A stretch of DNA of 64,000 bases from a bacterium (lineage in GTDB: Bacteria; Verrucomicrobiota; Verrucomicrobiia; Limisphaerales; RI-55), in the NCBI GenBank assembly GCA_016124235.1, contig WGOC01000022.1:157923-221922 (forward strand), in the 5' to 3' direction. The notes under the pieces were generated by a model. That model did no database searches, was not told the DNA's origin, and worked only from the letters and a program-made list of their open reading frames with translations. A program made the translations under genes and the position numbers. Position 1 is the stretch's first letter. Each line of letters opens with the position of its first letter. This document shows positions 20,874 through 49,700 of the stretch, in pieces.

Positions 20874-20905
20874 GCCGCTGAATCCGCTTTCCATATTAGC
20901 TTCGC

Positions 20906-34351: not shown

Positions 34352-34387
34352 CGATCTGTGCGGACCGCGCGAAGGATTGTTCCAAAA
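34352..34387 (+). repeat. left-end bipartite repeat (CGATCTGTGCGG-N14-TGTTCCAAAA)
   Basis: CGATCTGTGCGGAC (34352-34365) is the exact reverse complement of 49687-49700. TGTTCCAAA (34378-34386) matches the complement of 49667-49675. It lies 70 nt beyond the stop of the MuB-like gene. Confidence 0.8.
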
Positions 34388-34457
34388 TCCGTCCGTACGC
34401 TCAGACGGGCCGCTTGGCGGCCTCTCCTTAAATCAGTTTTGCTAACAGCCGGAAGCG

Positions 34458-35969
34458 TCAACCGGCGAGGGCTGAGGCTTCCGGAAATCGGTGTTCGTGC
34501 GCTTCGGTAACTGGCACGGTGCCGCGTCGCTTGGTCGTCAGTTTCATGACGTTGCCGGGCAACTGCCGCGATGCCGCAGCACTGGGGCCGCGTGCCGGCC
34601 GCGCGGTTGCGTTTTGCCTGCCGAGAGCTTTCGTCTTTGCGAGCAAGGTGGGTTCGATTACCTCTTTCATTGCTCGTTCCAAGTCGGTCGATTTGATGGT
34701 GTCGCGTCCGGATTCTTCGGCGAGTGCTTGTGCCTCGGTGACGATGTCCTTGATCGCATCGAGCTGGTGTTCTTTCAGTGATGCGTAGGCGGCCACGACA
34801 CCCACAAGCGTTTCGCTGGCACCGGGCAGAAGCGCGCGTGCGACGATGCGCAGATCTGAATCCCCCAGACGTGGGGGCAGTTCCACGAATCGTTTGGAGC
34901 GACGCAGAAACTGTCCTGAGTTCCAGCCCGTGCATTTCTCGACGTTGGCGGCGAGCTGCGAAAACTGAGGCGTCGCAATGAGTGCCACGGGCACGCCAAA
35001 ATTGTTGAGTCCGGAATAGAGCCAGTCCAACAGGACTGGCCGGGCCACAACGCGCTTGGTTTGCGGCAGGAGGTAATGCCCTTCATCGATCACCAGCATC
35101 AAACCCGATCGCCGCAGAACGTCCGTCGCGCGGGGTTTCATTTCGTTGACCTTGCGCATGTAGGAACACGCGACGCCAACGGCGGCCGCCAGCTCACGAA
35201 AGAACTCGGTTTGATTCGTGGTGCTCGTGAGCGATACCCGCCGCACTTCGCCCTCGTGTGCGGCACACCAGGCGTTGACTGCTTCGGTCTTGCCGATGCC
35301 TTCACGACCTTCAATGACGATCATCTGATGGGTTCGCCGGCAGAAATCCAGTTGCTTCCAAATCGTCTGCCCCACCGACGTTAGAGCGTGAGCGTCGGCC
35401 GCGCGTTTGCAGTCGCGATGCATCAACTCCAGGAGCGACCCAAGCAAGTCCCTGAAGTAAGGGACCGCCGCCGTGCGGAATCCTTCCCGCACGTGCTCAC
35501 CGGTGAGACGGCTCACATCAGGAAGAACCTGTTCCATCACGTTGCGCTGATAACCGGCGCTCAGGTTGTCCGCGTCCGAATCCAATTCGATGTATGGGTT
35601 GACGCAGATTTGAATGAGATGCCTCGGGAGCTTTTCCAGCGCGACTTTTTGGTAATCAGTTCCGGTCGCCATCGCCGATTCACCCGACGCACGCGCGCCT
35701 CGATTCGATCCGGTCTTGCGCGCGGTTGGCGTGGGAAGATTTTCTGGAAACATTTCGACCAGGTCTCGCGCGATTGCCAACAGACCGCCGGGCATCTGGC
35801 TTCGTCCCTGAATCCAGAACAGCAAACGTTTGAGTTCGCTCCCGGTGAGCAAGCCCGCCTTCGCGGTCGTGGCCAGTCCGTTGATACTGCGCAAGGCAAC
35901 ATACTCTTCGGAGGACATCCAACGCTCCTGTGAGAGCGCGTCGCCACTGTTCTTAATCCGCGTCGTCAT
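34458..35969 (-). CDS. AAA+ ATPase, MuB/TniB/TnsC-like transposition protein
   Basis: Walker A GREGIGKT and Walker B LMLVIDEGHYL in the C-terminal two-thirds. The start overlaps the transposase stop (4 nt). 503 aa with a ~220-aa N-terminal extension. Confidence 0.75.
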   Translation of the reverse strand: MTTRIKNSGDALSQERWMSSEEYVALRSINGLATTAKAGLLTGSELKRLLFWIQGRSQMPGGLLAIARDLVEMFPENLPTPTARKTGSNRGARASGESAMATGTDYQKVALEKLPRHLIQICVNPYIELDSDADNLSAGYQRNVMEQVLPDVSRLTGEHVREGFRTAAVPYFRDLLGSLLELMHRDCKRAADAHALTSVGQTIWKQLDFCRRTHQMIVIEGREGIGKTEAVNAWCAAHEGEVRRVSLTSTTNQTEFFRELAAAVGVACSYMRKVNEMKPRATDVLRRSGLMLVIDEGHYLLPQTKRVVARPVLLDWLYSGLNNFGVPVALIATPQFSQLAANVEKCTGWNSGQFLRRSKRFVELPPRLGDSDLRIVARALLPGASETLVGVVAAYASLKEHQLDAIKDIVTEAQALAEESGRDTIKSTDLERAMKEVIEPTLLAKTKALGRQNATARPARGPSAAASRQLPGNVMKLTTKRRGTVPVTEAHEHRFPEASALAG

Positions 35970-38371
35970 GCCGTTTCTCCTTCCTCCTCTTTGGCGCGGC
36001 GCAACAGTTCGGCCAGATTCGCGGAGCCTGAATCAATATCTGCAGACCGTGATACCGTGGCGGAACTCAAGCCGAGCTTGTTCAAACGAGTGCGGCCCTG
36101 GTGCTCGCGACGTTCCTTGTCTTCACGTCGGCGGACGGTGTCAGTCCGCTGGCGTTCGATCTCTGCGCCAAGGGCCACCACCTTTCGGTCAACCAGGTTG
36201 ACGCGGAAGCTGAGTTCATGCTTCGACTTCAGCGTGCGATGTACGCCGGCCCAGTAGCGTTGGTGCCTTTGCACCTTGGCCGTTTCATCGGCAAAGGTTG
36301 CGTCCGGTTCGTCAAGCAACACGGCCAGAGCGTTGGGTTGGCGGCAACGTTCGATCGCTATCGGGTTCTCCTGTTTCATGTCGGTGACCACCAGCACGTC
36401 GGGAAGTTCGGGATCGATCCAGGCCAGCATGCGACGGCCTTCCATCGGCGAGAGATCTTCGTGGCGATAGGTGAACTTCTCCCCGCGCAAATTAAAGCTG
36501 ACCGCGCCGCCGCGAATGACCACCGGCTTGCGATGATGCGCCAACCAGTGGCGGCAACGCGCATCCAGTTTGACGATGTCATTCTTCGGCCACCATTTAT
36601 TGAACGCTTCCTCAGGGGAAAGGCCGCGCAGGTGTTTGCCTTCTTGGGGAGTCGCGTTGTACGTGGCGACATGAACGGCAAAGCGGTCTGCCCATTCTTC
36701 GATCGAATAGAATTGGTTGAGCGCAGAGGCTTCGCCGCGCCGTGCTTCCTTCAATAGGTTGGTCAACGCTTCCGGACGATCGTAACGCTCTTCGCGGCCG
36801 CAGTATCCCAATTCGCCGTCGGTCAGATTCTGCAGGAGCCCGATCACCAGTTCCACCGGCTTTGAGCGTGCGCGCCGTGCAGTGATGATGCGAACGCCCA
36901 GACGTTGCAGACCCAATTCGCGCTCCGCCGAGGGGATGTCATCCCAACCGGGAGCCCGCATCGCTTGCATCGTTTGTTTGCCGCCGGTCATCAGCTTGGA
37001 TTCGGCAAACACTTTGCCGCGCTCCAGATAGATGGCCTTGGGTATGCCAAACTCTTCAATCGCCTTCGCGGTGACCGTGAACGCAAGCAGGGAGTTGGGT
37101 TGCTCTTCGGGAATGATGCCGAAATGCAGAACGCGCAACGTGCGCAGATCGATGATCAGAATGATCTGGCCACGCGTGAGCTTCCAGCTGCCATCGGGCA
37201 ACGGCCAGCGCAGATAGAGATTCCAGGTCGCGTCATCGATGACCAGGCAGTCCATCGGCCGGATGCCATCGTATGAAAGATCCATCGGCGGTGATGCTTT
37301 ATCGGCCGCACGAGGTCCTTGATGGAATGGGGCGATCGCTGCGATGGCTGGTGTCACCTCGCGCCGCAGTGTTTCCGGAACGTATGATTTGCGAGCGCCC
37401 AGCTTGCCGCCTTTAACTTCGCGCACAGCCGGGGCCACGCGTCCCCGAAATTTGCGCAGCGACGTGTAAACAATGCGCTCCAGTTCTTCGGTGTTCAGCA
37501 CCTTGGCGCGCGCCGCATTGGCTGACGGTCGTTTGTCGCGCAGTTCCTCCCCGGCCTGGTACCGCCGCCAAGCACGATCGAACGTGACTCGTAATGCGTT
37601 CCGATTGGCTGCCAGTCCGGGCGCTTGCGCCATCAGGAAGGCGAAGAGTTTCTCACGCGCGGCTTTCTGGGTGATGCCACGATCGAATTGCGCCTGGCAC
37701 CATTCGCAAGCGTGAGTGAGCAACAATTCTTTTTCGTCGGCGGAAATTTGGAGCGGCGAATTCAGGCCATCGATGACGCGGGCAAGCGCGCCCCATGAAT
37801 CGGACGGCGGCCGTGAATTGGTCGCTCGACGTGCCGGCTGTTTTCGAGCCGGCCGTTCCGGCAGATAGATTTCGATCGCGTCCAGTGGCCAGCTGTTGCC
37901 GGCCCGGTCCAACGTGCGCTGAAATAATTCCCGCCAGTAGCGATCGGTGATCGGATGACCGAACTCGCGTTGATAATCTTCGCGGCCCATCGCCACCAGT
38001 TCACTTCCGGAGAATGTTGTGTCGTCACGGCGGGCAATCGCTCGAACGAGGGCGCGTCGCAACCGCGTGGCCTGCATCACAGCCTCTTCGGTGCAATCGC
38101 TCATCGCGACTTTTGGGGACCAGGCGTTAGCGGCATGGTCAAACGTGAGGAGCTGAACCGGGGAGGAAAATTGTTGTCGCTGGCTTTCGGTTTGCAGCTC
38201 TTGCTGAAGAGCAAATGGAAGCGAACCAAACAACCATGCACGGCGGCCGCCACCATCGAAATCAGGCGCCACGTGCGCGAGCCGGCGACGCATGACGCGC
38301 TCGCTGGCGCGCATTGCCCGGGCGATTTGTGCGGCGGTTACTAATTCAGATTGGTTGCCGCGTTCGCTCAT
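35966..38371 (-). CDS. MuA-like DDE (RNase H-fold, rve-type) transposase
   Basis: Core VIDDATWNLYL...LIIDLRTLRVLHFGI...AIYLERGKVF...KPVELVIGLL follows the rve pattern (D.T / viD..sR.i.g / DnG.eF / P..kg.iEr). Spacing D380-70-E450-57-E507 resembles MuA (67/56, from memory). N-terminal HTH-like segments are present. 801 aa. Confidence 0.8.
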   Translation of the reverse strand: MSERGNQSELVTAAQIARAMRASERVMRRRLAHVAPDFDGGGRRAWLFGSLPFALQQELQTESQRQQFSSPVQLLTFDHAANAWSPKVAMSDCTEEAVMQATRLRRALVRAIARRDDTTFSGSELVAMGREDYQREFGHPITDRYWRELFQRTLDRAGNSWPLDAIEIYLPERPARKQPARRATNSRPPSDSWGALARVIDGLNSPLQISADEKELLLTHACEWCQAQFDRGITQKAAREKLFAFLMAQAPGLAANRNALRVTFDRAWRRYQAGEELRDKRPSANAARAKVLNTEELERIVYTSLRKFRGRVAPAVREVKGGKLGARKSYVPETLRREVTPAIAAIAPFHQGPRAADKASPPMDLSYDGIRPMDCLVIDDATWNLYLRWPLPDGSWKLTRGQIILIIDLRTLRVLHFGIIPEEQPNSLLAFTVTAKAIEEFGIPKAIYLERGKVFAESKLMTGGKQTMQAMRAPGWDDIPSAERELGLQRLGVRIITARRARSKPVELVIGLLQNLTDGELGYCGREERYDRPEALTNLLKEARRGEASALNQFYSIEEWADRFAVHVATYNATPQEGKHLRGLSPEEAFNKWWPKNDIVKLDARCRHWLAHHRKPVVIRGGAVSFNLRGEKFTYRHEDLSPMEGRRMLAWIDPELPDVLVVTDMKQENPIAIERCRQPNALAVLLDEPDATFADETAKVQRHQRYWAGVHRTLKSKHELSFRVNLVDRKVVALGAEIERQRTDTVRRREDKERREHQGRTRLNKLGLSSATVSRSADIDSGSANLAELLRRAKEEEGETA

Positions 38372-40311
38372 GCCGCTGGAATCCCGATGGCTGTCCGATT
38401 TTTTCGGATGGTTTCAACAATGACGCGTTCGCCTTCCGCTGAGCGTGCCCAATTGATCATTGCGTTGCGATCGTCGAGAAGGCCGATGGAAATCTTTTGG
38501 GCACTGGGTGCCGCCACGGCCGGCATGGCTGCGGCTTTGCCGGAAGCGAGCGCGCGCAGATTGTTCACCCCGATCCGTGCCGTCTGTTGATCGGTGAATA
38601 CAAACTCACGTTTGTGAACTACCCCGGCCACCTGGTTGGGATCACCATCGCCGGTGTAGTCACCAGCCTTGTATCCGCCGTAATTCTGGCTGGCAATCGT
38701 CGCGACATTGGCTAACCCAGCGGCCGTGACGCCCGCGGCGGCGATGTAGTTGAGACCGGTTGGGTTTTCGCCCAAAGCCCGTGAGGCAGCGAGGTACGTG
38801 CTTATGATCGCCTCACTAACCGCAAGTGCCTTGTAAGCCACAAATCCTTTCGCACCGAATGCCTTGGAGGCTTCAGCGAAACCGGACAAACCCTGGATGG
38901 CCAGCTCCAGTTCGTTTTCGCGAATCTTCTTCCGCTTCTCTGCCTCCCGCCGTTTGATCTCCGTAATATCCTGCTCGGTCTGATCAATCTTATCCTTCAG
39001 GTCGAACCACTGATCAGCCACTTCCGCGAACGCCTTGGTGTAGGTTTCCCCGTCCGGCATAAACACGTGTTCAAACTTCTGCCCGATGTCAGCCTGGATA
39101 ATTTGGAGCTGATCTTTCTCGCGCTCCAGTTGCTGGATCAACCCTTCCGAAGTCAGGCCGGCTTCGTTACTGCGCATTGATCGGTAGGCCAGCGCGTTCT
39201 GGGTTGCGCGATCAACGCCCACCGGAGCTTTTTTCTCGGCACCACCAGGAACGTCGCCGGCATTATTGGATTGCTGATCAACGGGGATCGCATCCCACAT
39301 TTTCCCAGCCATTGCGGCCAATAACTGATTCCTTGGTGAGAGTGCCGCCATCGCAAATCGCTTAGCCAGCGACGCGATTGTGTCTGCATGCCTGATTCCC
39401 GCGTTGCCAACCTGAGTGGCCATCTGGGCCAGCTTGAATAGCTTGCCCATGCCTTCCACAAAACCAGGACTGTTTACCAGCTTGGTGAGTTCCTTGAACG
39501 TTGTCTCAAGCTCACCAAAGAAGCCCTTGCCAGCGTGGCCCGCCTGAATGTCAAATGATTGCTTAAGATTGGACCAGAGAACCGCGTAAGACTCTTTCGC
39601 CGCGTCGGTCGCTTCCTTGAAGCCAGTCAATTTCGTTTCCAGAAAATCGAACAGACGGCCTTCGCGCTGTGCGGTGAGCACATCCTCGCGTGTGATCCCG
39701 AGCGACTTTGCCAGGAATGAATCCGGCCCGATGTTACCCGTCAGCAAATCACGCGATTCCTGCGTGAGTTGCCGGCCCTCCAAACCGACTGCGCGTACAG
39801 CGTTGGCCAGATCTAATGCCAGCTGGACTTGCTGGTTTAACGGAATCCCTGCGCGAGACTGTGCCGCCGTCGTCGATTGAAAGAGTTCGACCAGTTCGCC
39901 GTACGTGGCCGCGCTTTCAAGTGACTTGACCTTAAGCTGCTCAAGCAACGCGTCGGAGATCTTCAACGCCTGGTTGAAGTCTGTCACTCGGTCCGGGTTC
40001 ATCGACCGCAGGATGGCCGCTATGCCGAGCCGTGACGTCTCCATCTGCTTGTTGAAGCTCACGCTCGTGTGGACAATGTCCTCCATCACTCCGAGCACTT
40101 CACGCAGACCGCGCAACATGATGCTGGTGAAGTTAATCCCCAGCCCGGTCTTCAGCGCTTGAATCCACGAGTTAGTGGCGGTGGTATTGTCCGCTGTCGT
40201 CTTCGCGGCGTTCTTCCCCTCATTCACCAACGATTTGAAACCTGCCAACGTGCTCTGCAGCTTGGCTAGCTCCGAGTTGATCTGGATGAGAATGTCAACC
40301 TTGTTGGGCAT
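38368..40311 (-). CDS. phage tail tape-measure-like protein
   Basis: 647 aa, largely helical and low-complexity. A TMP-core-like segment is present (ESAATYGELVELFQSTTAAQSRAGIPLNQQVQLALDLANAVRAVG). The C-terminal GGYKAGDYTGDGDPNQVAGVVHKREFVFTDQQTARIG matches the GYTG.G...AG.VH.gE.V signature recalled from lambda-type TMP C-termini. Not verified by HMM. Confidence 0.65.
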   Translation of the reverse strand: MPNKVDILIQINSELAKLQSTLAGFKSLVNEGKNAAKTTADNTTATNSWIQALKTGLGINFTSIMLRGLREVLGVMEDIVHTSVSFNKQMETSRLGIAAILRSMNPDRVTDFNQALKISDALLEQLKVKSLESAATYGELVELFQSTTAAQSRAGIPLNQQVQLALDLANAVRAVGLEGRQLTQESRDLLTGNIGPDSFLAKSLGITREDVLTAQREGRLFDFLETKLTGFKEATDAAKESYAVLWSNLKQSFDIQAGHAGKGFFGELETTFKELTKLVNSPGFVEGMGKLFKLAQMATQVGNAGIRHADTIASLAKRFAMAALSPRNQLLAAMAGKMWDAIPVDQQSNNAGDVPGGAEKKAPVGVDRATQNALAYRSMRSNEAGLTSEGLIQQLEREKDQLQIIQADIGQKFEHVFMPDGETYTKAFAEVADQWFDLKDKIDQTEQDITEIKRREAEKRKKIRENELELAIQGLSGFAEASKAFGAKGFVAYKALAVSEAIISTYLAASRALGENPTGLNYIAAAGVTAAGLANVATIASQNYGGYKAGDYTGDGDPNQVAGVVHKREFVFTDQQTARIGVNNLRALASGKAAAMPAVAAPSAQKISIGLLDDRNAMINWARSAEGERVIVETIRKNRTAIGIPAA

Positions 40312-40768
40312 GCGCGTTTGGGTTGATGGAAATCAGCTTCCCGAGTTCAGGGCTCAGTGCGACCGCCTGTGGCCAGAGATCCATGTGCGTGAGATCCGCG
40401 CCGATGCTGGCAAGTTCGGAAGTCATCATCTCGCGGGCGGACTCGGGAACGGATTCGTGACCGAGAAGATTTATGTACGTGGCTAACAGTTGCCGCTTGA
40501 TTTGCCCCAGCGTTTCGTTGTCTCGCAGGATCTCGGAACGAGACTCTTCAAAAACTGGACGATCAGGGCTGTCGAATGATGCGCCACCAACTGGAAACCG
40601 TGATTGGTGTTCGTCCATCCTTCGGGAGAGCGCGCTTTTCAACAGAACTCCCTGGTTGAGCAGTTCATCTCGACGCTGAAGAAGGCCGGCAATCTCAGTG
40701 GCGGTAACCGGGTCCCGACTAACGATAGCAATGGACATCGCTGGTTGGTTCGGCGTGCTCAAATTCAT
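40295..40768 (-). CDS. hypothetical protein (157 aa)
   Basis: Intact ORF in the operon. Its start overlaps the upstream stop by 4 nt and its end overlaps the TMP-like start by 17 nt. No family recognised. Confidence 0.5.
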   Translation of the reverse strand: MNLSTPNQPAMSIAIVSRDPVTATEIAGLLQRRDELLNQGVLLKSALSRRMDEHQSRFPVGGASFDSPDRPVFEESRSEILRDNETLGQIKRQLLATYINLLGHESVPESAREMMTSELASIGADLTHMDLWPQAVALSPELGKLISINPNAHAQQG

Positions 40769-41190
40769 GGGTTGCCTCCAGTTTCAAATTCGAGCGGGTC
40801 CAGATACACAGCCTCCCCGCACTCCGGACAATCGTAGAGGTGGCACTGATCCCACGTGCCTCGCCAATCGCAATGAACGCAGTGCGCGGTGTAATGGGAC
40901 GGCGGCTCAGTGAGCACAGCGCGTTGGCGCGCACTCATTAATTTGATGGGGACCTCGCTATTATACACAGCGCGCACTTCGTCATCGCTCCCAGCCCACA
41001 GCCAACCAAAGACAGTTTCCAGCCGGGCTTCCAGGAACCATCGAACATGATCGCGAAAGCCGTTGGGACGTTCCGGATATGGATAGGAAACGCGGTTCAC
41101 TAGGTTCATCAGACCGGCAAGCTGATTCATTCCCCACGAGCGGGCACGCTGAAGGGGGGAATTGGTGATCGTCGGCGGGTGCAGTGTCAC
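40765..41190 (-). CDS. hypothetical protein with C-terminal zinc-ribbon (CVHC...CPEC)
   Basis: 141 aa with HCVHCDWRGTWDQCHLYDCPECGEAVY. There are 4-nt overlaps at both ends. Confidence 0.55.
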   Translation of the reverse strand: MTLHPPTITNSPLQRARSWGMNQLAGLMNLVNRVSYPYPERPNGFRDHVRWFLEARLETVFGWLWAGSDDEVRAVYNSEVPIKLMSARQRAVLTEPPSHYTAHCVHCDWRGTWDQCHLYDCPECGEAVYLDPLEFETGGNP

Positions 41191-41780
41191 GATTCGCCTC
41201 CTTTGCTGAAATCTGGGGTTTGACGAGCTGAACAGGGCCGCTGCCGTTTGCTGCCGTTTGTACGTGCGCGGCTTTCGGCCGGTTCGCGGCTCAAGACAGC
41301 GGCCAAATCGTCCTGGGGCATTTTAGAGCGTTGCTTTCTGGCCACTTTGGAAGCCGGTTTTGGGCTCAGATGCCGTTCAGCCAAAAACTGCCGAGCCGAG
41401 GCGACGCTTACGAGCCGTTCGTGCCTGACTACGCGCCCGACAATCATCCCACGTCGACACAACTCCATAACGTGCGGTCGTGTGCAGGAAATAATTCTGC
41501 CCAATTCAATACAGGGGATCTCCAACTTGCCGGAGCCCGGCAGGATGAACAGCAACGCCGCATCAAGATTGTGAAAGCGTTGACCTCCGGGAAGGAGGGA
41601 TTCGGCAAGGATGCGGATCGCGCGCTTCCTCCGACCCAATCCAATATCGAATGCCCAGCGAATCTTACCCTTACGAATTAGGGCCTCGACTTCGGCGTAA
41701 TTCAGAAACAACGCGGACTGCAGGCTCACTGGTTTGACCAGGCGTGCGCGTGGCGGTGTGGCTGTTCGCGTGGCGGGCAT
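41187..41780 (-). CDS. putative DNA-binding protein (two excisionase/MerR-like HTH segments)
   Basis: 197 aa. LNYAEVEALIRKGKIRWAF and IISCTRPHVMELCRRGMIVGRV resemble HTH_17-type motifs. The tail is basic. Confidence 0.5.
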   Translation of the reverse strand: MPATRTATPPRARLVKPVSLQSALFLNYAEVEALIRKGKIRWAFDIGLGRRKRAIRILAESLLPGGQRFHNLDAALLFILPGSGKLEIPCIELGRIISCTRPHVMELCRRGMIVGRVVRHERLVSVASARQFLAERHLSPKPASKVARKQRSKMPQDDLAAVLSREPAESRARTNGSKRQRPCSARQTPDFSKGGES

Positions 41781-41783
41781 CCC

Positions 41784-42383: not shown

Positions 42384-42885
42384 GTGTGTCAGTTGGTTGA
42401 GGTGGAACTGCGAAAAAACCTTGGAAATCGGTGAACACCGTGATTTCCCGACGCACCAGGCCGACGGCGCTAATCAATTCGGCCGGGCAGCGGCGGTGAC
42501 ATCTGAACCAATTGGAGATCGCTGCCGGGCAATCTGGTTGCCGGGCGTAGGCTCGCCATGCTTTCTCGACCGAGCCGCGCGTAACCGTCAGAGTACGGAC
42601 GGAAGCAATCACCTCTTCAGTTAGAACGGATGAAAAACGCTTGGTGTGGCGGCGCCCTGATCGGTGCCACGCAGGGCGGAGGGCTTGAAAGCCGCCGGAT
42701 TGAAACGCGTGGAGATAGCGGTCCAACGTCTGCCGGCTGCAGCCCAGCTGGCGAGCTGCGGCGCTGCGGCCGTGGGCCTGCAGGAGGGTGGAATAATCTT
42801 CGATCAGCTGAAGACGTTCCTCGGCGATCTGGTTGGCACGGTCCATTGAAGCGAGTCTAGGTGATTTCTTCCGTTTCTGATTCAT
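42376..42885 (-). CDS. putative HTH DNA-binding protein (homeodomain-like/transposase-N-terminal type)
   Basis: AARQLGCSRQTLDRYLHAFQSGGFQAL is HTH_23-like. An alternative start is the ATG at 42846. Confidence 0.55.
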   Translation of the reverse strand: MNQKRKKSPRLASMDRANQIAEERLQLIEDYSTLLQAHGRSAAARQLGCSRQTLDRYLHAFQSGGFQALRPAWHRSGRRHTKRFSSVLTEEVIASVRTLTVTRGSVEKAWRAYARQPDCPAAISNWFRCHRRCPAELISAVGLVRREITVFTDFQGFFAVPPQPTDTHE

Positions 42886-43180
42886 GGGGCGGTCCGGGAG
42901 GATTGAAGCGCCCGTCGTCCAAGCGGGCGCCCTTGAATGTTACCGAATCCTCTCTCGCCGCGTATGCGGTCATCCAAAAATCAACGTCGTCCAAAAAGCA
43001 AAATGACAGGGGCCGCGCCGTGCCAACGCAACCCCTGTCACCCATACACCGATCGCCACCGACACCGCTTGGACTTGCGATTGTCGATTCGATGGTTTCG
43101 GCGGTAACCGAAGAGAGAACCGCCGAAATCAGGAGCGCCGCCCGCAGGCCGCGCAAATTAACTGGCACGATTGCCGGCAT
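42857..43180 (-). CDS. hypothetical small secreted protein
   Basis: The ATG at 43180 (TAATG overlap with the upstream stop) gives MPAIVPVNLRGLRAALLISAVLSSVTAE, a signal-peptide-like N-terminus. The track start at 43213 is also possible. Confidence 0.4.
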   Translation of the reverse strand: MPAIVPVNLRGLRAALLISAVLSSVTAETIESTIASPSGVGGDRCMGDRGCVGTARPLSFCFLDDVDFWMTAYAAREDSVTFKGARLDDGRFNPPGPPHESETEEIT

Positions 43181-43719
43181 TACTTTGTTTTCACGAGATA
43201 CGCGTTGAGGCAATCGATTGCCCGAAGCGCAAAGGCGACGTCGCCATCAAGGCCCGAATCATCACTCAACGGTGCGAATCCGAAGTGCCGCACGTCGTGA
43301 AGGTCCGTGCAGACGGGAAGGTAATCAAAGGCCATGCGGCGCATTTCCTCCCGCATTCCAGGATCGGAAACGAACAGGGTGATGTGTTCGGCAAATCGCT
43401 GGCCTTCCGCGACGTGAAGGTCATTGAAAGTCGTCGCAAAATTGCTTTTCAATGTCTTGATCTCCGCGCGCAGATCGCCGCAAATGGCCTGCAGTTCCTC
43501 GGGTAGTTTGGCCGCTTGGATCTGCAGCAAATCCATCCTGGTGCGCGCGCTCGCCAGCGCCGCGACGCCGGCTTCGTCGTTCGGCGAAGTCGAGTGGAGC
43601 AAGGCCTGGCAATGTTTACCCTGGGCGATGACGGCTTCGTCCTGCTCGGCGATCTTGCGCAGCATGGCGCGGCGTTGCTCGGCGACTTTTTTCAAATTGG
43701 TTGGGTCAAAATTCTTCAT
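43180..43719 (-). CDS. hypothetical protein (179 aa, helical)
   Basis: The start overlaps the Ner-like stop (ATGA). No family recognised. Confidence 0.55.
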   Translation of the reverse strand: MKNFDPTNLKKVAEQRRAMLRKIAEQDEAVIAQGKHCQALLHSTSPNDEAGVAALASARTRMDLLQIQAAKLPEELQAICGDLRAEIKTLKSNFATTFNDLHVAEGQRFAEHITLFVSDPGMREEMRRMAFDYLPVCTDLHDVRHFGFAPLSDDSGLDGDVAFALRAIDCLNAYLVKTK

Positions 43720-43955
43720 GGTTGGGTTGGGGTTGTTTGGGGCCAGAAATGAAGGCCAAAGAAATCTTCAATAGCTCTCCGCGCACGGGAGCATCTTCTT
43801 GCTGGTTGAGCGCCGTTGATGACGCCGTGAAGGTAGCGAGGTGAGTAACCAAGCCTTTCGGCCAATTCTTTTACCGTCATCCCCCGCGAAAGAATCTCAG
43901 CCCTGATTCGACGGCCGTTGCACGGATTGACGGATTGAGTTGCGAAACTTCGCAT
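43716..43955 (-). CDS. Ner-like (HTH_35) DNA-binding protein
   Basis: 79 aa. RIRAEILSRGMTVKELAERLGYSPRYLHGVING..P.......AIEDFFGLHFWP matches the Ner-family layout (HTH followed by a ..IWP-type C-terminal motif). It is divergent from the XRE-type repressor. Confidence 0.65.
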   Translation of the reverse strand: MRSFATQSVNPCNGRRIRAEILSRGMTVKELAERLGYSPRYLHGVINGAQPARRCSRARRAIEDFFGLHFWPQTTPTQP

Positions 43956-44031
43956 AGGTAACCAGCATTAAAGAAACCCGTAATGCGTGTCTTAGGAAAC
44001 ACAAAGTGTGTCCTGAGTCAAGTGGTTTTCT
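43956..44031. promoter_or_regulatory. divergent promoter/operator region between the Ner-like and repressor genes
   Basis: 76-nt intergenic region with GTGTCTTAGGAAACAC (43987-44002, GTGT/ACAC inverted) followed by a second GTGTGTCC (44006-44013). Confidence 0.45.
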
Positions 44032-44832
44032 ATGAGTAAGGCTCACATTCGATTGGAGACGTTTGGATCAAGGTTGCGTTGGGTGCGCGAACAATATGGC
44101 TTGTCGCTCGCTCAGTTTGGGCAGCGCTTCAATGTTACCAGAAGTTATCTGAGTAAGCTTGAAAGGGGCGCTGCTGTGAACCCTTCCACGGATATTGTTG
44201 ACTCGATTTGCGGCCTATATCGAGTACGAGAAAAGTGGTTGCTGGAGGGCGAAGGAATGCCGTTTGTGGATGATTTGACCAATGATCTTGCGAACAAAGG
44301 CAAGCTAAGTCCGCCTTTACAGCGAATCCCTCTCACGTCTAAGCAGAAGATGGAAATGGCGCCCTTATATGTGGCTGCGTCGGTTGTGAAAGTGCTTTCG
44401 GTTGGGCAGCTGGCGCATGCTCTCTCTGGTTTACTCAACGAGCATTCTTTGGATGATCCATTTATCGGGACAGCGGCAAGTATTTACGTTGATGAACTGG
44501 CGAAGCGGTTGAAGGAGTGGGAGGCTTCCGCTGATATTCAGAAAGCAATACCCAGTGAACAGCAGTCTACAATAGGTAAAACATATTTGACATCTAATGT
44601 TTCCCTGGCTAACCAAGACGACGTGAAGATTCCCGAAGGTTTGTGGCCCAAGATGGTTGGAAGGCTAAGAAAGCTTCTCGGTCCATCTGGAAAGAAGACT
44701 CAATTCGCTCGCGATCTCGGCGTGACCCGTCAAACGGTTCATCGTTGGTTGAACGTGGAAGAAGCCGAACCGTCCGGTGATCTTGCCCTCCGTATCCAGC
44801 GTTGGATTCAACTGGAGGAAAAAGCAAAGTGA
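44032..44832 (+). CDS. XRE-family repressor-like protein with two HTH segments
   Basis: N-terminal LRWVREQYGLSLAQFGQRFNVTRSYLSKLERG (HTH_3) and C-terminal KKTQFARDLGVTRQTVHRWLN (second HTH). 266 aa. Confidence 0.7.
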   Translation: MSKAHIRLETFGSRLRWVREQYGLSLAQFGQRFNVTRSYLSKLERGAAVNPSTDIVDSICGLYRVREKWLLEGEGMPFVDDLTNDLANKGKLSPPLQRIPLTSKQKMEMAPLYVAASVVKVLSVGQLAHALSGLLNEHSLDDPFIGTAASIYVDELAKRLKEWEASADIQKAIPSEQQSTIGKTYLTSNVSLANQDDVKIPEGLWPKMVGRLRKLLGPSGKKTQFARDLGVTRQTVHRWLNVEEAEPSGDLALRIQRWIQLEEKAK

Positions 44833-44893
44833 AACAAGGCGGCGCAATCGGTGGTCAAGACCGACTGCGCCAAGCCCAACGAAAGGTCCTATC

Positions 44894-45199
44894 GTGAGAA
44901 AAGAAATTCGTCAGGCCGACGAAGATAAGAGCACGTCGCCTGCCTCCCCACAATCGCAAAGGCGCAACCGCGCGCTTCCCAAGAGATCAGCGGTCATCCA
45001 GTTTTACGGAGCGGACGGCCGTGTCTTCTGTGAAGTTGAACTGACTCCAGAACTCTTTGCCGCCGTGCGAGGCGCCGCGCGCAAAGCCCGCTGCAGTGTG
45101 CTGACGTTCATCAAGCGGGCAATCGAGGCAAAGCTCGCTGCGTTGGAAGAGGCGCAACGTTCTGTATCCGCACTGAGTGCAGAAAGGAGCGCGAAGTGA
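44894..45199 (+). CDS. hypothetical protein, C-terminal ribbon-helix-helix-like fold
   Basis: VFCEVELTPELFAAVRGAARKARCSVLTFIKRAIEAKL fits a beta-helix-helix (Arc/CopG-like) pattern. The GTG at 44894 is preceded by GAAAGG. The start is uncertain (the ORF is open from 44777). Confidence 0.4.
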   Translation: MRKEIRQADEDKSTSPASPQSQRRNRALPKRSAVIQFYGADGRVFCEVELTPELFAAVRGAARKARCSVLTFIKRAIEAKLAALEEAQRSVSALSAERSAK

Positions 45200-45414
45200 A
45201 AAGCCGCCGCCGTCCGATCAAACAGCCGGCCAAGCCTCTCTATGACCGAGATGTCCTCGGTGAATTTGCGGATGTCGCGACATCTCTCAGCAGCCTGAAC
45301 GTTGGGGAATTGGAGGGTTTCATCCAACGGATGCGGGAATTTATCCGGGCTGCGGAAGCGCGTGTCGCCATGCTCCGAAATGAACCGCAACTCAACCCAT
45401 CAGCCCTTAACTAA
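45196..45414 (+). CDS. hypothetical protein (72 aa)
   Basis: GTGA start/stop overlap with the preceding ORF. No family recognised. Confidence 0.45.
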   Translation: MKSRRRPIKQPAKPLYDRDVLGEFADVATSLSSLNVGELEGFIQRMREFIRAAEARVAMLRNEPQLNPSALN

Positions 45415-45423
45415 GGAGGCCAC

Positions 45424-45681
45424 ATGGCAAAACGAATCATTACGAAAACGACGCCAGCCGACCTCGAACAGTTGCCACCGTGGCTCGAACATTTGGAGCC
45501 TGAACTGCGGAAGCTGGCGGTGGATTGGAACGCGGCAAAGCGCCGCCGGATGGCCGCCATGTTTTCGCGTTGGTCGGCCCAGTTGATTGAGTCGGCCGAC
45601 ATGATAGATGCCCATGAAGACGAAGGTGCTTTTGACTTGGAACAACGCAACGTGAAGGCCGGCAATCCCGCCTTCAACTGA
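45424..45681 (+). CDS. hypothetical protein (85 aa)
   Basis: The ATG is preceded by AAGGAGG (45412-45418). No family recognised. Confidence 0.5.
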   Translation: MAKRIITKTTPADLEQLPPWLEHLEPELRKLAVDWNAAKRRRMAAMFSRWSAQLIESADMIDAHEDEGAFDLEQRNVKAGNPAFN

Positions 45682-45690
45682 GGGCACACT

Positions 45691-45864
45691 ATGAAGACGC
45701 TCTTTTGTTCCGGTAAAGACGCCAAGTGTGCGTTGGTGGTAAAACGCGGCGCCCGTCGCCGCCTTCGCCATCTTCAGTTCGTCAACCCACACGGGGCGCT
45801 CGATTGGTGCATGGCTCGCGGCGTGTCGTTTGTGTGGGTGCCGGCTGGTGTTGAACCCGGCTAA
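45691..45864 (+). CDS. hypothetical small protein (57 aa, below the ORF-track cutoff)
   Basis: My own translation gives MKTLFCSGKDAKCALVVKRGARRRLRHLQFVNPHGALDWCMARGVSFVWVPAGVEPG, with stop TAA at 45862-45864 immediately before a strong hairpin. Confidence 0.35.
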   Translation: MKTLFCSGKDAKCALVVKRGARRRLRHLQFVNPHGALDWCMARGVSFVWVPAGVEPG

Positions 45865-45868
45865 AAAA

Positions 45869-46472: not shown

Positions 46473-46480
46473 CTGCTGAA

Positions 46481-46663
46481 TCAGTTTGCCGCTTTGGCGT
46501 GAATAGGCACGTCCGCTCGCACCGGCGCCGGTGGTTGTGAAGGCGGCGGCGGCTGTGGCGGGGGCGGCGGCGGCCTGCTCCCAACGGGTGGAGGATTGTT
46601 TACGCCGCCTTTCTTAATCAGCCCTTCATTGGCCGCCATCATCGTTCTCGGTTTCTCGCTCAT
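46481..46663 (-). CDS. possible small proline-rich protein (60 aa)
   Basis: ...NNPPPVGSRPPPPPPQPPPPSQPPAPV... It overlaps the end of the upstream gene by 38 nt and ends just before the bidirectional terminator. Coding status is uncertain. Confidence 0.3.
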   Translation of the reverse strand: MSEKPRTMMAANEGLIKKGGVNNPPPVGSRPPPPPPQPPPPSQPPAPVRADVPIHAKAAN

Positions 46664-47351
46664 TTGATTCTTCAGTTGACTTGGGGTTCAGTTCGTCCGT
46701 CATTGGAATAGACCGGAACTCCAAAGCTATTTTTCCGCGCTCTAAGTCGAGGTACATCGCCCCGATGTTATAGAGCAAATTCCCATCACTGTTACGATAC
46801 ACGCCAACATCCCTAAGGTAAAGCTCGGCTTTTACACCATCGTCTGAAAACCCTAATATCCACCCGTCATAGGCAAGATCCCTGGCTGGATCTCGGACCG
46901 TAACCCACGATCCGCTCTTGTCCTGGATGTTCATTGCGTAGCCCCAAACATCCAGATTGCCTGATTTGTGGGTGAATCGGAATTTTCTCCCAATTCGATA
47001 AGGGATGCCAAGATTCAAAAGCGCTGAACTGCCGACGCCACTCACGATCGCGATGAGGCATGCTCCGATTAGCTCTGGAAAACTGATCGTCGAATCTTGC
47101 TTTAGCAGGTTTTCAAAGAAGCCCATTTTGGTGGGTAAGGACCACTCAAATTCCAGATTCAGTGATGGGCATATCCAAAGGAAGATGAACCACTCGACCA
47201 GGTAGCAACTGAGGCCAAAGAGCAGAACCTCAATTATGTAGAAGAAAGGCTCACGTTTTTTGATAACCGCGAACGCGTTGATGATCTGGGCGACAATGAC
47301 GCCCGGAAGAAATAGCAGCAGAGATCTGAACGCGAATTCTGATATCTCCAT
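46626..47351 (-). CDS. hypothetical membrane protein (about 4 TM helices + soluble beta-rich C-terminal domain)
   Basis: The ATG at 47351 (MEISEFAF...) is preferred over the TTG at 47396. Hydrophobic segments LLLFLPGVIVAQIINAFAV, FFYIIEVLLFGLSCYLVEWFIFLWI and LIGACLIAIVSGVGSSALL. The DNA is visibly AT-richer than its surroundings. Confidence 0.6.
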   Translation of the reverse strand: MEISEFAFRSLLLFLPGVIVAQIINAFAVIKKREPFFYIIEVLLFGLSCYLVEWFIFLWICPSLNLEFEWSLPTKMGFFENLLKQDSTISFPELIGACLIAIVSGVGSSALLNLGIPYRIGRKFRFTHKSGNLDVWGYAMNIQDKSGSWVTVRDPARDLAYDGWILGFSDDGVKAELYLRDVGVYRNSDGNLLYNIGAMYLDLERGKIALEFRSIPMTDELNPKSTEESNERETENDDGGQ

Positions 47352-47445
47352 TCCCGCTTTGTAACGTGCGCGGCGATTTTCGTCTATCCGAATCAACTAG
47401 GTCTTGAAGCATTTCGATTCGATCAGCACACTATTCCTATAGGAA

Positions 47446-48252
47446 ATGGAATTCGTCAGAGCTATTCCGTTTGAAGAAGCGGTCGCCAAACTGGGTGATC
47501 GTTCGGTTATTGGTTCGTGGCTGAAGTCCACCGAGTGGGCTGGTGTGCCAGTGGCGTTGCGCGATCGTGCCTATTTCTCCGCCACGGTCGAAAGTGTGCG
47601 CGTGCTGCAGCGTGGCCGCGATATGATCAACGATTTCCTCACCGGCGTGCGTGAGATCCTGCCGAATGGCGAAGTGGCGTTGAAGGCGGGTAGTCGTCAG
47701 GAGTTCGTGAAGCAGATGCAGAGCTTCATGGAGTCGGAGGGGATGATCCGTAAACACGGCGGCTTGTCCGACGTGGCCAGCCAGCGCCGGCTGGAATTGA
47801 TCTTCGATACGCAGACCAGACAGGCCCAGGAATATGGCACCTGGAAGCAGGGCCAAGACCCCGACGTGCTCGACGAGTTCCCAGCGCAGAGATTTATCCG
47901 CGTGCATTCCGTGAACGAGGCGCGCACTTCACACGCGGCGTTTGAAGGCGCTGTCCGCCTCAAGAGTGATTTGCAGTTCTGGCAATCGATCAATCAGGAT
48001 TTCGGCGTGCCTTGGGGGCCGTGGGGTTGGGGTTGCGGTCACGACGTGGAAGACGTGGACCGTGCCGAAGCCGAGTCGCTCGGCTTGCTGCAACCAGGCG
48101 AACCGGCCCGCCCGGTGGACAAGTCGTTCAACGATCAGCTGAAGGCATCAACGTGCGGCATTGATCCAGATCTGCAGGGCGTGCTGAAGAAACAGTTTGG
48201 CGAGCAGATCCAGAGCGAAGGGGACGCGGTGAATTGGAGGGGGCAGGAATGA
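47446..48252 (+). CDS. phage Mu F-like / SPP1 gp7-family head morphogenesis protein homologue
   Basis: IPFEEAVAKL N-terminus, RRLELIFDTQTRQAQEYGTW (compare R.ELIARTE...A.N.G), and RFIRVHSVNEARTSHAAFEGAVRLKSDLQFW (compare D.RTR..H..L.G......D.FW). Recognised from memory of the family motifs. Confidence 0.6.
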   Translation: MEFVRAIPFEEAVAKLGDRSVIGSWLKSTEWAGVPVALRDRAYFSATVESVRVLQRGRDMINDFLTGVREILPNGEVALKAGSRQEFVKQMQSFMESEGMIRKHGGLSDVASQRRLELIFDTQTRQAQEYGTWKQGQDPDVLDEFPAQRFIRVHSVNEARTSHAAFEGAVRLKSDLQFWQSINQDFGVPWGPWGWGCGHDVEDVDRAEAESLGLLQPGEPARPVDKSFNDQLKASTCGIDPDLQGVLKKQFGEQIQSEGDAVNWRGQE

Positions 48253-48575
48253 CGTTGCGCGATATTCTCCGAGGCCGATTGGTGGGCAAGTATGACGATG
48301 CCGAAACTGTTCGGCGCCTGGTCGGCATCGGCCTCACCGAACTGGAAGCCAAACGTTGGTTGATTGACCAGGATGCAGGCTTCGGGCCTGACGTATTTAG
48401 CGAAGACGACAATGACCGTCAACGGCGGACGATAATGACTGATCGCATGATGGCCGCCATTCCCGACGAGGTGGCTATCGACCGCTTGCAATCGACCGGC
48501 CTCACTGAGGCTGAAGCGCGGCGGTGGCTCCAAAACCAGGATGAACTATTCCTGCCGGATTTGGTAATTGATTAG
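48249..48575 (+). CDS. hypothetical protein with internal repeat GLTE(L/A)EA(K/R)RWL.(D/N)QD
   Basis: The ATG at 48249 overlaps the MuF-like stop (ATGA). There are two copies of an ~18-aa motif (GLTELEAKRWLIDQDAGF / GLTEAEARRWLQNQDELF). Confidence 0.5.
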   Translation: MTLRDILRGRLVGKYDDAETVRRLVGIGLTELEAKRWLIDQDAGFGPDVFSEDDNDRQRRTIMTDRMMAAIPDEVAIDRLQSTGLTEAEARRWLQNQDELFLPDLVID

Positions 48576-48586
48576 GGGGTAGTTGT

Positions 48587-49207
48587 ATGTCTCGCACAAA
48601 GCCGAAAGATCTCACTATTTTTGGGGTGACGAAGCGACTGGATGAAATCGTAGCGCTCAGACACGATCTGATAGCGTATTTCAACGATCTTAATCGGTCG
48701 CAGTCCTATATGTCTGCCCCGAGCGAGGGAGAAAAAGCGAGGGCGGTAAGACCAGAGATTAACCGAAGGCTTGATTCTGTTGTCGAATATATCGAGGCCG
48801 CGGGTGTACCGTGCGTTCTATATCATTCGCCAGCGCCGGCAATCGGTGGATTTGCAGGCAATATCCATGTCCTCCATAATATCTTTAATTGGCATCAGCT
48901 CGATATTCGGCCAGTTCAAATTCTCGACATCTTTGAGAGAGCGATAGGTGTCTATCAAGCTCAGGTTGGACCTGCAAAAGTGCGGACATTTAATCCGATT
49001 TTTTGGCTGCTTCGCTTCTTACGAGCGATTAGCTCGTTACCGTTCTCACTGCTCGATAATGTCGGCCTTGGTGGACACAAGCTGGAAGAGAGTTTCGTCG
49101 GTAAATTGATCAAGTTGTTGACTGAACTTATTACATTGGCTTGTTCGGCGTACGGTTTTCTCAAATTAATTGGCCGCGAAGATATGATTCGAAAGTTTTT
49201 TGAGTGA
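48587..49207 (+). CDS. hypothetical protein (206 aa) with hydrophobic C-terminal region
   Basis: AT-richer ORF. The C-terminal FNPIFWLLRFLRAISSLPFSLL and LIKLLTELITLACSAYGFLKLI segments suggest membrane association. No family recognised. Confidence 0.55.
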   Translation: MSRTKPKDLTIFGVTKRLDEIVALRHDLIAYFNDLNRSQSYMSAPSEGEKARAVRPEINRRLDSVVEYIEAAGVPCVLYHSPAPAIGGFAGNIHVLHNIFNWHQLDIRPVQILDIFERAIGVYQAQVGPAKVRTFNPIFWLLRFLRAISSLPFSLLDNVGLGGHKLEESFVGKLIKLLTELITLACSAYGFLKLIGREDMIRKFFE

Positions 49208-49280
49208 GCGGCGCAGAGCGGCGAAATGCCGCCTACTGACTCTCTTGTCCGGCGGCTGATTTGTGAGATTCTGTGGGCCG

Positions 49281-49457: not shown

Positions 49458-49585
49458 GTCGCTGCCGGTATCTGGCAATGCGGCTGCCGGAGATGTGCTG
49501 CGACGCCTGTCGCGACGTCTAACCGGTTAATTCAGGACGCATCACTTATGATTAGACGAAGTGATTGAAAGTTGTCCGATGTCCC

Positions 49586-49619
49586 ATCTGTGCGGTCTAT
49601 TTTTCAATTTGTTCCAAAA
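49586..49619 (+). repeat. right-end inner copy of the bipartite repeat (same orientation as the left end)
   Basis: ATCTGTGCGG (49586-49595), N14, then TGTTCCAAAA (49610-49619). Confidence 0.8.
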
Positions 49620-49666
49620 CTCCGAGCGACCGGCACTGAAGGCCCGCCGTTATTGAGTATTCTACG

Positions 49667-49700
49667 TTTGGAACAGTCGGACATCAGTCCGCACAGATCG
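49667..49700 (-). repeat. right-end outer copy of the bipartite repeat (inverted relative to the left end)
   Basis: TTTGGAACA (49667-49675), N13, then CCGCACAGATCG (49689-49700). Reverse complement is CGATCTGTGCGG-N13-TGTTCCAAA. Confidence 0.8.

Follow-up and report, generated by a model that had tools for sequence, protein, structure and literature searches.

The 64,000-nucleotide stretch of a Verrucomicrobiota genome analyzed here (assembly GCA_016124235.1, contig WGOC01000022.1, positions 157,923 to 221,922 of the forward strand; called the window below, with its own numbering) contains an element of 15,502 bp at positions 34338-49839. This is firmly established as an intact Mu-class transposable element with 5′-TG...CA-3′ termini, and it lies behind a tRNA-Val gene. 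A long operon on the minus strand ends with a MuA-like transposase (A) and a MuB-like ATPase (B), and a repressor gene heads the divergent arm; the two ends are called the B side and the c side (or repressor side). From left to right, the open reading frames (ORFs) and sites are as follows.

34334..34337, no strand: left copy of the target-site duplication, AACG, identical to 49840-49843 and abutting the terminus
34338..34390, plus: B-side terminus, 5′-TGGTAGTTCG..., with the predicted transposase-binding site B1 (CGATCGATCTGTGCGG, N11, TTGTTCCAAAA); aligns with the B-side ends of relatives
34458..35969, minus: MuB-like AAA+ ATPase B, 503 aa (PHROG 296 'DNA transposition protein', 1.5e-19; Pfam AAA_22, 7.5e-15, and TniB, 6e-5)
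35966..38371, minus: MuA-like transposase A, 801 aa, with predicted catalytic residues D379/D380, E450 and E507 (D-E-E) (PHROG 310, 7.7e-30)
38368..40311, minus: tape-measure protein (TMP) homologue, 647 aa, translationally coupled to the A gene (PHROG 3336, 1.2e-29)
40295..43719, minus: seven small operon genes, of 157, 141, 197, 199, 169, 118 (doubtful) and 179 aa (ORF list)
43716..43955, minus: Ner-like small helix-turn-helix (HTH) protein, 79 aa, whose gene heads the operon (Pfam HTH_3, 8e-6; PHROG 925 and 769, HTH/repressor families)
43956..44031, no strand: divergent control region of 76 bp between the repressor gene and the operon, with putative operators
44032..44832, plus: repressor, 266 aa, with an N-terminal XRE HTH and a further, C-terminal HTH (Pfam HTH_3, 2.7e-16, in two stretches; PHROG repressor families)
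44777..45864, plus: four small ORFs 3′ of the repressor gene, of 140, 72, 85 and 57 aa, with no family match (ORF list)
46626..47396, minus: membrane protein, 256 aa, on the strand opposite to its neighbours, probable cargo (Pfam DUF6338, 6e-5, below the curated cutoff)
47446..48252, plus: MuF-like head-morphogenesis protein, 268 aa (PHROG 220 'minor head protein', 7.7e-15)
48234..49207, plus: two ORFs, of 113 aa (48234-48575; internal GLTExEAxRWL repeat) and 206 aa (ORF list)
49585..49704, no strand: two subterminal bipartite sites of predicted binding function, C3 (49585-49625, in the orientation of B1) and C2 (49667-49704, inverted), from a repeat search
49814..49839, minus: c-side terminus, reading inward 5′-TGAATGTTCGCGACCGAGTTGTACGC; homologous to the end of the closest relative, L013, and compared also with that of L004
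49840..49843, no strand: right copy of the target-site duplication, AACG, matching the left copy
49854..49928, minus: tRNA-Val(GAC), the insertion target (ARAGORN; Rfam tRNA, 67.6 bits)

The element is compared throughout with its relatives. A word-indexed protein search gave 23 homologues of A, and the contigs that carry them, together with one IMG/VR contig and 28 species-representative loci, make up about 40 loci (L001 and so on); the gene content of the retrieved contigs is read from the gene calls supplied with the loci.

The limits of the element are marked by its terminal sequences and by a duplication of the target. The direct repeat AACG directly flanks both termini (34334-34337 and 49840-49843), and the terminal 26-bp stretches are identical at 18 of 26 positions. 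The preliminary description of this DNA, made from the sequence alone, had bounded the block by inverted copies of a bipartite repeat at 34352-34387 and 49667-49700. The repeat itself does exist: the window has three copies of GATCTGTGCGGWC (34353 plus, 49585 plus and 49687 minus) where 0.2 are expected by chance, and TTGTTCCAAA stands 11-13 nt 3′ of each copy. Yet these are not the ends. Comparison with relatives and the AACG duplication, which had gone unremarked, place the termini at 34338 and 49839, so that the limits given earlier fall short by 14 bp at the left end and by 139 bp at the right. The repeats are rejected as termini and correspond to the predicted binding sites B1 and C2 inside the true ends, the left one falling within the B-side terminus region (34338-34390).

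The same organization is found in the relatives. On the side 3′ of B there is TTGGAAC(T)TGGAAC, followed by CCGGACAAAATCACCG and about 10 nt ending in TTACA, at which point similarity ceases; thus the conserved B-side end consists of the core, about 10 nt and CA, and the B side of the window element aligns with it. The repressor side has an inverted copy of the core at the terminus and another, oriented the opposite way, 170-190 bp farther inside. The terminal core and CA are conserved in more than 25 loci. The ends of the closer relatives L004 and L013 align with window sequence beyond the limits first proposed, giving a B-side end of ...GGTCCGCACAGATCGATCGCGAACTACCA and a repressor-side end that begins TGAATGTTCGCGACCGAGTTGTACGC.... 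With termini set by the conserved core, 4-bp direct repeats are present at the junctions in 16 of 19 elements, 12 of these without coordinate adjustment (chance is 1/256 for each), and two further 4-bp duplications are evident by eye in L122 (ATGA) and L022 (GTAG). The duplication in the window is also 4 bp, not the 5 bp expected of Mu-like phages and Tn7-like transposons.

The right terminus of the window element lies 14 bp from the CCA 3′ end of the tRNA-Val gene, a placement that was not noticed in the preliminary description and that is the most distinctive property of the family. ARAGORN finds a tRNA gene adjoining the element in 19 loci including the window, and in all 19 the terminus is 13-15 bp, mostly 14, past the CCA. 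The target genes are those of tRNA-Glu, tRNA-Val (GAC and CAC), tRNA-Ala, tRNA-Met, tRNA-Arg (four anticodons), tRNA-Gly and tRNA-Leu, and most have a GGTTCRA T-arm and then a GC(G/A)CACCA end. Beyond this set L015, L017, L122 and L005 are also tRNA-adjacent. Among these, two contigs start within the 3′ end of a tRNA, with the spacing unchanged, and in L122, a more distant relative, the terminus is 12-14 bp past tRNA-Val. L005 (2440-2549) lies 15 bp past an isolated tRNA 3′-half fragment (GGGTTCGACCCCCGCTTCGCGTACCA) at which ARAGORN calls no gene; this suggests that the T-arm and the 3′ strand of the acceptor may be sufficient as the target.

Overall, 23 of the 25 readable junctions are tRNA-adjacent, the exceptions being L003 and L022. 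The orientation is preferred as well, for it is the repressor side that faces the tRNA in 21 of the 23, and the B side in only two (L006 and L040). To insert downstream of a conserved gene at a constant distance and in a preferred orientation (14 bp past the CCA; 21/23) is a Tn7-type trait, and insertion 13-15 bp behind tRNA genes in 23 of 25 cases is not the near-random insertion of Mu. In one metagenome-assembled genome (MAG) two tRNA genes are occupied, each by a different element. The contigs of L004, L015, L017, L024 and L029 end at the termini of the element or within about one k-mer of them (55 or 141 nt). Such breaks would be expected in sampled populations where filled sites stand alongside empty ones, or where there are several insertion sites, and we regard them as a sign of recent mobility.

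Transposase A has no match in Pfam, and its family profile finds no match in the PDB by sequence. With hhalign it aligns with MuA (E = 5e-6), pairing D379 with D269, E507 with E392, and the invariant E450-R-G with D336-N-T-R-G of MuA. In the AlphaFold (AF2) model (pLDDT, the predicted local distance difference test, 67) there is an RNase-H-like core in which E450 ends β4 and E507 is on the next helix. The best Foldseek match of this model is the Mu transpososome (4FCY, 2e-12), with ShCAST TnsB (7svw, 1.4e-11) and Tn7 TnsB also matched, and a template modelling score of 0.67 to the MuA core. The nearest annotated phage relatives by tblastn are transposases of Mu-like phages, with 23-27% identity. 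The family is large: exhaustive hmmsearch of 1.84 billion representatives gives 620 clusters at 50% identity (E ≤ 1e-30), and in 127 of the best 150 clusters the protein is at least 700 aa long. D379, D380, T382, E450, K504 and E507 are invariant in 128 members. The D-E-E spacing is Mu-like (70 + 57 residues); the second catalytic position, aspartate in MuA, TnsB and the integrases, is here an invariant glutamate within a motif E-[RNG]-G.

The B gene overlaps the A gene by 4 nt, and B homologues are found in 33 related loci. Searched against the PDB, the B family profile has MuB as its best match (8xvb, 2.8e-7), and similarity to TnsC-type proteins is only weak (Pfam TniB 6e-5; TnsC 0.008). 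The N-terminal ~190 residues of B are conserved across the family and have no counterpart in MuB.

More than 20 related loci have a homologue of the repressor, placed as in the window. No sigma-70 consensus promoter is found in the 76-bp region that separates the repressor gene from the operon. Among the small operon products two belong to DNA-binding families that are widespread in the relatives. The 197-aa protein is a member of family F3, which is double winged-helix-like, has no significant PDB match by profile, and occurs also in one full-size phage; the 169-aa protein (42376-42885, minus) is a member of family F8 (Pfam HTH_29, 6.6e-10, and HTH_28). The 141-aa product has a CxxC...CxxC zinc ribbon that is not conserved in the family. 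The remaining small operon ORFs have no Pfam or PHROG match, and those of 157, 141 and 179 aa none in PADLOC. On the other arm, the 57- and 140-aa products have homologues on the same arm in relatives, and the 256-aa membrane protein has no PHROG or PADLOC match. A known defence system as cargo was considered and is not borne out, PADLOC being negative on 10 unassigned ORFs. The Pfam and PHROG scans reveal no integrase, the element having a transposase instead.

Two products of the window element are homologous to proteins of the phage particle. The tape-measure ORF also matches eight other PHROG families, of which five carry a TMP annotation, and its C-terminal domain (residues ~446-640) is found in 529 candidate stretches, the best 80 being on phage contigs mostly of 20-60 kb. 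The AF2 model of the MuF-like protein, made with 40 homologues, matches head-morphogenesis and MuF-like minor capsid proteins of BFVD by Foldseek (E from 6e-6 to 1e-3). The following 113-aa ORF has two copies of a ~20-residue motif (GLTELEAKRWLIDQD and GLTEAEARRWLQNQD) and a weak match to the C-terminal end of a portal protein (PHROG 533, 4.6e-5); the 206-aa ORF has no match in PHROGs or PADLOC. Aside from that weak portal motif, Pfam and PHROGs detect no capsid, portal, terminase, tail tube, sheath, baseplate or lysis protein among 20 ORFs, and three further doubtful ORFs have no PHROG match. With 15,502 bp and only the TMP and MuF-like genes, the element has neither the complete virion and lysis modules nor the 36-42-kb genome of a Mu-like phage. 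Lacking recognized capsid, portal, terminase, tail and lysis genes, it would be unable to form particles alone.

The gene content given in the preliminary description thus stands in most respects. Its calls of a TMP-like protein (with a C-terminal domain common to more than 500 phage contigs), a MuF-like protein (PHROG 220, 8e-15), a MuA-like transposase, a MuB-like ATPase and a divergent XRE repressor/Ner-like switch (HTH_3 in both products) are borne out. The ORF coordinates and 4-nt overlaps were correct, the ORFs are all intact, and capsid, portal, terminase, tail-tube and lysis genes are indeed absent on the scans just described. It had also remarked that the recognizable virion genes are confined to classes ejected with the DNA; this is true of the window, with its TMP and MuF, but not of the relatives, which carry capsid, protease or portal genes instead.

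The hosts of the ~40 loci are mostly Verrucomicrobiota MAGs. Four loci (L014, L015, L026 and L027) are in MAGs labelled Pseudomonadales, Hyphomicrobiales or Bifidobacteriaceae, which may reflect mis-binning or real spread beyond the Planctomycetes-Verrucomicrobia-Chlamydiae (PVC) group. All loci have a common layout, in which a repressor of ~270-300 aa diverges from an operon that ends with A and then B. In all of them the start of the repressor gene lies 5.5-7.6 kb upstream of that of A, and host genes begin ~0.2-1 kb past B. Elements with both ends found are 8.2-15.5 kb long, most of them 12-14.4 kb, with the exception of the truncated L033 at 4.3 kb. The far end of L022 was outside the original locus, and walking to it gives 14.7 kb. 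No full-size phage with an A-family transposase is found in IMG/VR or among the ~40 genome loci. Relatives differ in the particle genes they hold, which lie between the ner-like gene and A:

HK97-type capsid, in some fused to a protease: L006, L024, L025, L016, L026, L012
capsid of another family (PHROG 1005): L122
Mu-type or S78 prohead protease: L003, L031, L012
Mu-type or PF04860 portal: L004, L012
true tape-measure protein: the window element, L006, L024, L029, L022

At least two of the capsid families are firm (PF05065/PHROG 10, and PHROG 1005) and a third is weak (PHROG 283/267, in L014). Clustering and alignment (alignment A2) put the TMP homologues of L006, L024 and L029 at the position of that in the window, and in L022 an ORF of the TMP family is directly upstream of A. 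Most other relatives have a coiled-coil protein of 460-634 aa (family F4) right before A. Its kinship to tape-measure proteins is unsupported, hhalign giving a probability of 1.6%. Several relatives have a GemA-like gene 3′ of B. The smallest intact member, L001 (8.96 kb), has no recognized particle gene and yet has its ends and duplication intact; the Pfam content on record for its operon is A, B, repressor and RadC only. Other members are degraded. In L040 (8996-10867) a deletion fuses the capsid gene to A, in L009 and L010 the B gene is truncated or split, and L033 (9329-13658) is a 4.3-kb remnant that has kept both ends and the duplication.

The MuF-like gene connects the compact elements to phages of full size. 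The window protein has at least 299 homologues with 53-69% identity, and is far better conserved than A. Some have C-terminal ADP-ribosyltransferase (ART) domains. Homologues are present in other compact elements (L022, L013 and L122) and, at 49-60% identity, in 18 IMG/VR contigs, of which 16 are of 35-44 kb. By contrast, A and B have only 25-31% identity between these phages and the window element. L123/L124 is a conventional Mu-like phage, with A, B, Gam, ..., MuF-ART, ..., a TerL-sized ORF and Portal_Mu; the TerL-sized ORF of L123 has 565 aa and no family match on record. In this phage (L123 10001-11266, L124 4634-5899) and in other homologues such as P0029 and P0137, the MuF homologue is fused to an ADP-ribosyltransferase toxin domain (PF01129/PF03496). 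The MuF-ART gene of such full-size Mu-like phages is located in the early/middle region, and the portal gene is not adjacent. L129 (IMG/VR UViG_3300047678_000676, 38.6 kb) is differently arranged. TerL, portal and protease are on one arm, and on the other a MuF-like gene is followed by A (984 aa) and B reading outward. This plan of two divergent arms resembles that of the compact elements, unlike that of Mu. The MuF-sharing phages of 35-44 kb are plausible helpers of the compact elements and sources of their captured genes.

Beyond the tRNA-Val gene in the window, an ORF of 3,399 aa starts right next to it (50007-60206, minus) and is followed by one for a 1,251-aa multi-domain glycosyltransferase/pyruvyl-transferase/methyltransferase protein (60203-63958, minus). 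On the other side of the element, the region 16000-21600 has a lower GC content (0.475-0.54, compared with ~0.57) and codes for LysM amidase, beta-barrel porin-like, Wzz/tyrosine-kinase-type and polysaccharide export proteins. It looks like an ordinary exopolysaccharide locus with no relation to the element.

What kind of element is this? Our best explanation, to which we give a probability of about 0.55, is that it belongs, as an intact copy, to a large family of Mu-type elements of PVC bacteria that are compact (8-15.5 kb), target tRNA genes and are probably satellites. Judged from sequence comparison, the satellite component by itself has slightly less than even odds: the elements would be transposable phage satellites, a natural counterpart of mini-Mu, packaged by full-size Mu-like helpers of the same hosts. 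More tentative again is the broadest form of the proposal, a widespread satellite class that combines D-E-E MuA/MuB machinery with a choice of tRNA genes made without TniQ or guide RNA, and that would hijack the Mu-like phages of Verrucomicrobiota and Planctomycetota with its own variants of their particle genes. The satellite reading follows from the fact that the relatives each hold a different small subset of particle genes. Like known satellites, they have no autonomous particle set but some morphogenesis genes (TMP and MuF-like in the window; capsid, protease or portal in relatives). Their size is about one-third of that of the candidate helpers, and full-length capsid, portal and protease genes of different families appear to have been captured repeatedly. 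MuF is much nearer to the phage versions than are A and B, some horizontal vehicle would be needed, and laboratory mini-Mu provides a precedent by analogy.

In such a scheme the repressor would hold the operon silent. On derepression the transposase would assemble on the end sites and, with the ATPase, join the 3′ CA ends to the target, the 3′ half of a tRNA gene, which would be recognized by a factor that the element encodes. Candidates for this factor are the ~190-aa N-terminal extension of the ATPase or a small HTH protein. The tRNA site would be a harmless 'safe site', of which there are dozens per genome, and the tape-measure and MuF proteins may serve in entry into helper virions, or in changing them.

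A number of observations weigh against this explanation or parts of it. Some bear on target choice. L003 (c-side end at ~1998) and L022/L143 (L143 at ~11608) adjoin no tRNA; the clean GTAG duplication of L022 is at the 3′ end of a glycosyltransferase gene, a hint of another target pathway that does not involve tRNA. No cognate complementarity is found between element and tRNA, the longest exact matches (9-15 nt) being no longer than those to other tRNAs. The Rfam scan finds tRNA and no other RNA, and no ORF has a Pfam match to TniQ or TnsA at E ≤ 0.01, a threshold that a very divergent analogue could escape. Others bear on the satellite itself. There is no helper prophage within the window, and the family has a single member in IMG/VR, a 6.6-kb fragment. 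A tape measure has no known role in any described satellite, and the particle genes are placed in the early operon. An exact-match search of metagenome contigs returned neither an empty insertion site nor a second copy of the element (0 matches for each), and the boundaries in the window therefore rest on the duplication and on comparison within the family. The catalytic role of E450 is predicted from alignment and a model of medium confidence (pLDDT 67).

The results on target choice nevertheless narrow the possibilities. Targeting by a guide RNA is rejected, given the lack of cognate complementarity, the Rfam result, and the fact that T-arm-like motifs are not conserved among the elements. 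Since there is no TniQ or TnsA match either, the selector is likeliest to be a protein that recognizes tRNA genes by their 3′ half, and the N-terminal extension of B is the first candidate.

The foremost alternative, which we consider less likely, is an autonomous site-specific transposon that is never packaged and has kept phage-derived genes to interfere with superinfecting Mu-like phages. Dominant-negative 'poison' subunits would be made from the derepressed operon, the element would act as a defence island, and its spread would be mainly vertical or by other vectors. The transposition and regulation module is complete, and the element carries nothing further that particle formation requires. 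L001 survives with ends and duplication intact and no recognized particle gene, the family is nearly missing from IMG/VR, and the particle genes share the early operon with A and B in place of a late operon. Against it, the 10 unassigned ORFs match no known defence system. The sizes cluster at 12-14.5 kb, about one-third of the 35-44-kb phages that share genes with the elements, a ratio typical of satellites. The repeated acquisition of portal genes and of full-length capsid genes from different families, in some cases with a protease fused on, fits the building or remodelling of capsids better than their poisoning, and the spread over many lineages demands some horizontal transfer. We thus favour the satellite over the transposon with phage-derived genes; both had been put forward in the preliminary description, and both are kept.

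That the element is instead a divergent Tn7-like transposon, with an analogue of TniQ/TnsD (and possibly TnsA) among its small ORFs and the phage-like genes as cargo, is improbable. Insertion at a fixed distance behind a conserved gene with strong orientation bias is in its favour, TnsB structures fit the A model nearly as well as does MuA, and B has weak TniB/TnsC similarity. But the nearest relatives of A in sequence are transposases of Mu-like phages, MuB is the best structural-database match of B, and several relatives have a GemA-like gene behind B. There is a repressor/ner-type switch, the duplication is 4 bp and not 5, and none of the ORFs has a Pfam match to TniQ or TnsA. The zinc ribbon of the 141-aa ORF might have pointed to such an analogue, but that ORF is not conserved in the family.

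Least probable is the third proposal of the preliminary description, a heavily deleted and decaying Mu-like prophage that keeps its ends, regulators, A, B and a few structural genes: full-size transposable phages with the same two-arm layout do exist (L129) and some members are clearly degraded (L040, L033, L009 and L010), but simple decay is disfavoured, and was rightly called uneconomical, because the family is uniformly compact (0 of ~40 A-family loci are of full size), the ends and duplications of the delimited members are intact and lie at many different tRNA genes, and the particle genes are inside the early operon between the ner-like gene and A, which a single internal deletion of a Mu-type genome cannot yield, while the 620 clusters of full-length, ~800-aa transposases, the intact and translationally coupled ORFs of the window, and the identity to full-size phages of 25-31% for A and B against 50-60% for MuF all tell the same way.

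The preliminary description knew of no described element of this architecture, and we have found none either. Within the full-text literature consulted, and one survey of Tn7 searched by term, there is no description of compact tRNA-targeting Mu-type elements, of satellites that move by transposition, or of a D-E-E transposase of the Mu class; coverage of these sources is incomplete, and 'undescribed' is to that extent provisional. The targeting of tRNA genes as 'safe sites' is not in itself new, since Tn7-like elements with TniQ/TnsD or CRISPR guides are known to home to them. If our reading is right, Mu-type transposition, the textbook case of near-random insertion, would have a large natural branch that chooses its target precisely without the selector proteins of Tn7. 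A compact two-protein system inserting 14 bp behind tRNA genes would be of interest for the way in which AAA+ proteins pick targets, and possibly for genome engineering. The invariant Asp-Glu-Glu triad would be an unusual variant of the DDE active site, open to mutagenesis. Should the elements be satellites, they would represent a new satellite lifestyle in which transposition replaces excision and integration, and would offer a first handle on the interplay of viruses and satellites in Verrucomicrobiota and Planctomycetota, where almost nothing is known of it.

How does the family relate to known systems? It shares with Tn7-like transposons a superfamily of DDE transposase and AAA+ regulator, 5′-TG ends with repeated transposase sites, and insertion at a fixed distance downstream of an intact tRNA gene, mostly in one orientation. 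Tn7-like elements insert at glmS or tRNA genes with the help of TniQ/TnsD or CRISPR guides. In the window element no TnsA, TniQ/TnsD or CRISPR module is detected, nor guide-like complementarity to the tRNA; the duplication is 4 bp where theirs is 5 bp, A and B are nearer to MuA and MuB, and there are a phage-type repressor switch and particle genes. The IS21 elements also have a transposase/ATPase pair (IstA and the AAA+ protein IstB), TG...CA ends with multiple terminal repeats, and duplications that are sometimes 4 bp. They are however only ~2-2.5 kb, without regulators or cargo, IstA and IstB belong to other families, and IS21 elements are not known to target tRNA genes.

The phage satellites (P4, SaPI/PICI, capsid-forming PICI and PLE) resemble the family in size (8-15.5 kb, about one-third of the candidate helper), in having their own repressor, and in residing next to tRNA genes. 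Both have a partial and variable set of morphogenesis genes, and the capsid homologues of the relatives recall those of SaPIbov5 (Ccm) and the cf-PICIs. No terminase small subunit or known gene for capsid-size redirection is recognized in the window element, and to our knowledge no described satellite encodes a tape-measure protein. The principal difference lies in the mode of movement. All described satellites that we know of integrate by a tyrosine or serine recombinase and replicate as excised circles, whereas the window element has Mu-type transposition in place of a site-specific recombinase, with no integrase found.

The closest likeness is to Mu and the Mu-like phages, such as BalMu-1 and the RcapMu-like phages. 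They share the MuA-class transposase, in fold and in profile, with a MuB-class ATPase right downstream, a repressor gene that diverges from a small HTH gene, TG...CA termini, several subterminal sites at each end and, in relatives of the window element, a GemA-like gene after B. Yet Mu has 36-42 kb with capsid, portal, terminase, tail and lysis genes, where the window element has 15.5 kb without these. Mu makes a 5-bp duplication at near-random sites, and the window element one of 4 bp at 14 bp behind a tRNA gene. In Mu, A and B come directly after ner, and in the window element they are at the far end of a 9.5-kb operon. The second catalytic residue of Mu is aspartate where here it is glutamate, and the ATPase has its extra N terminus of ~190 aa. 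In gene content the window element is similar to the engineered mini-Mu, which consists of the ends, c, ner, A and B, and which in the laboratory is packaged by helper Mu.

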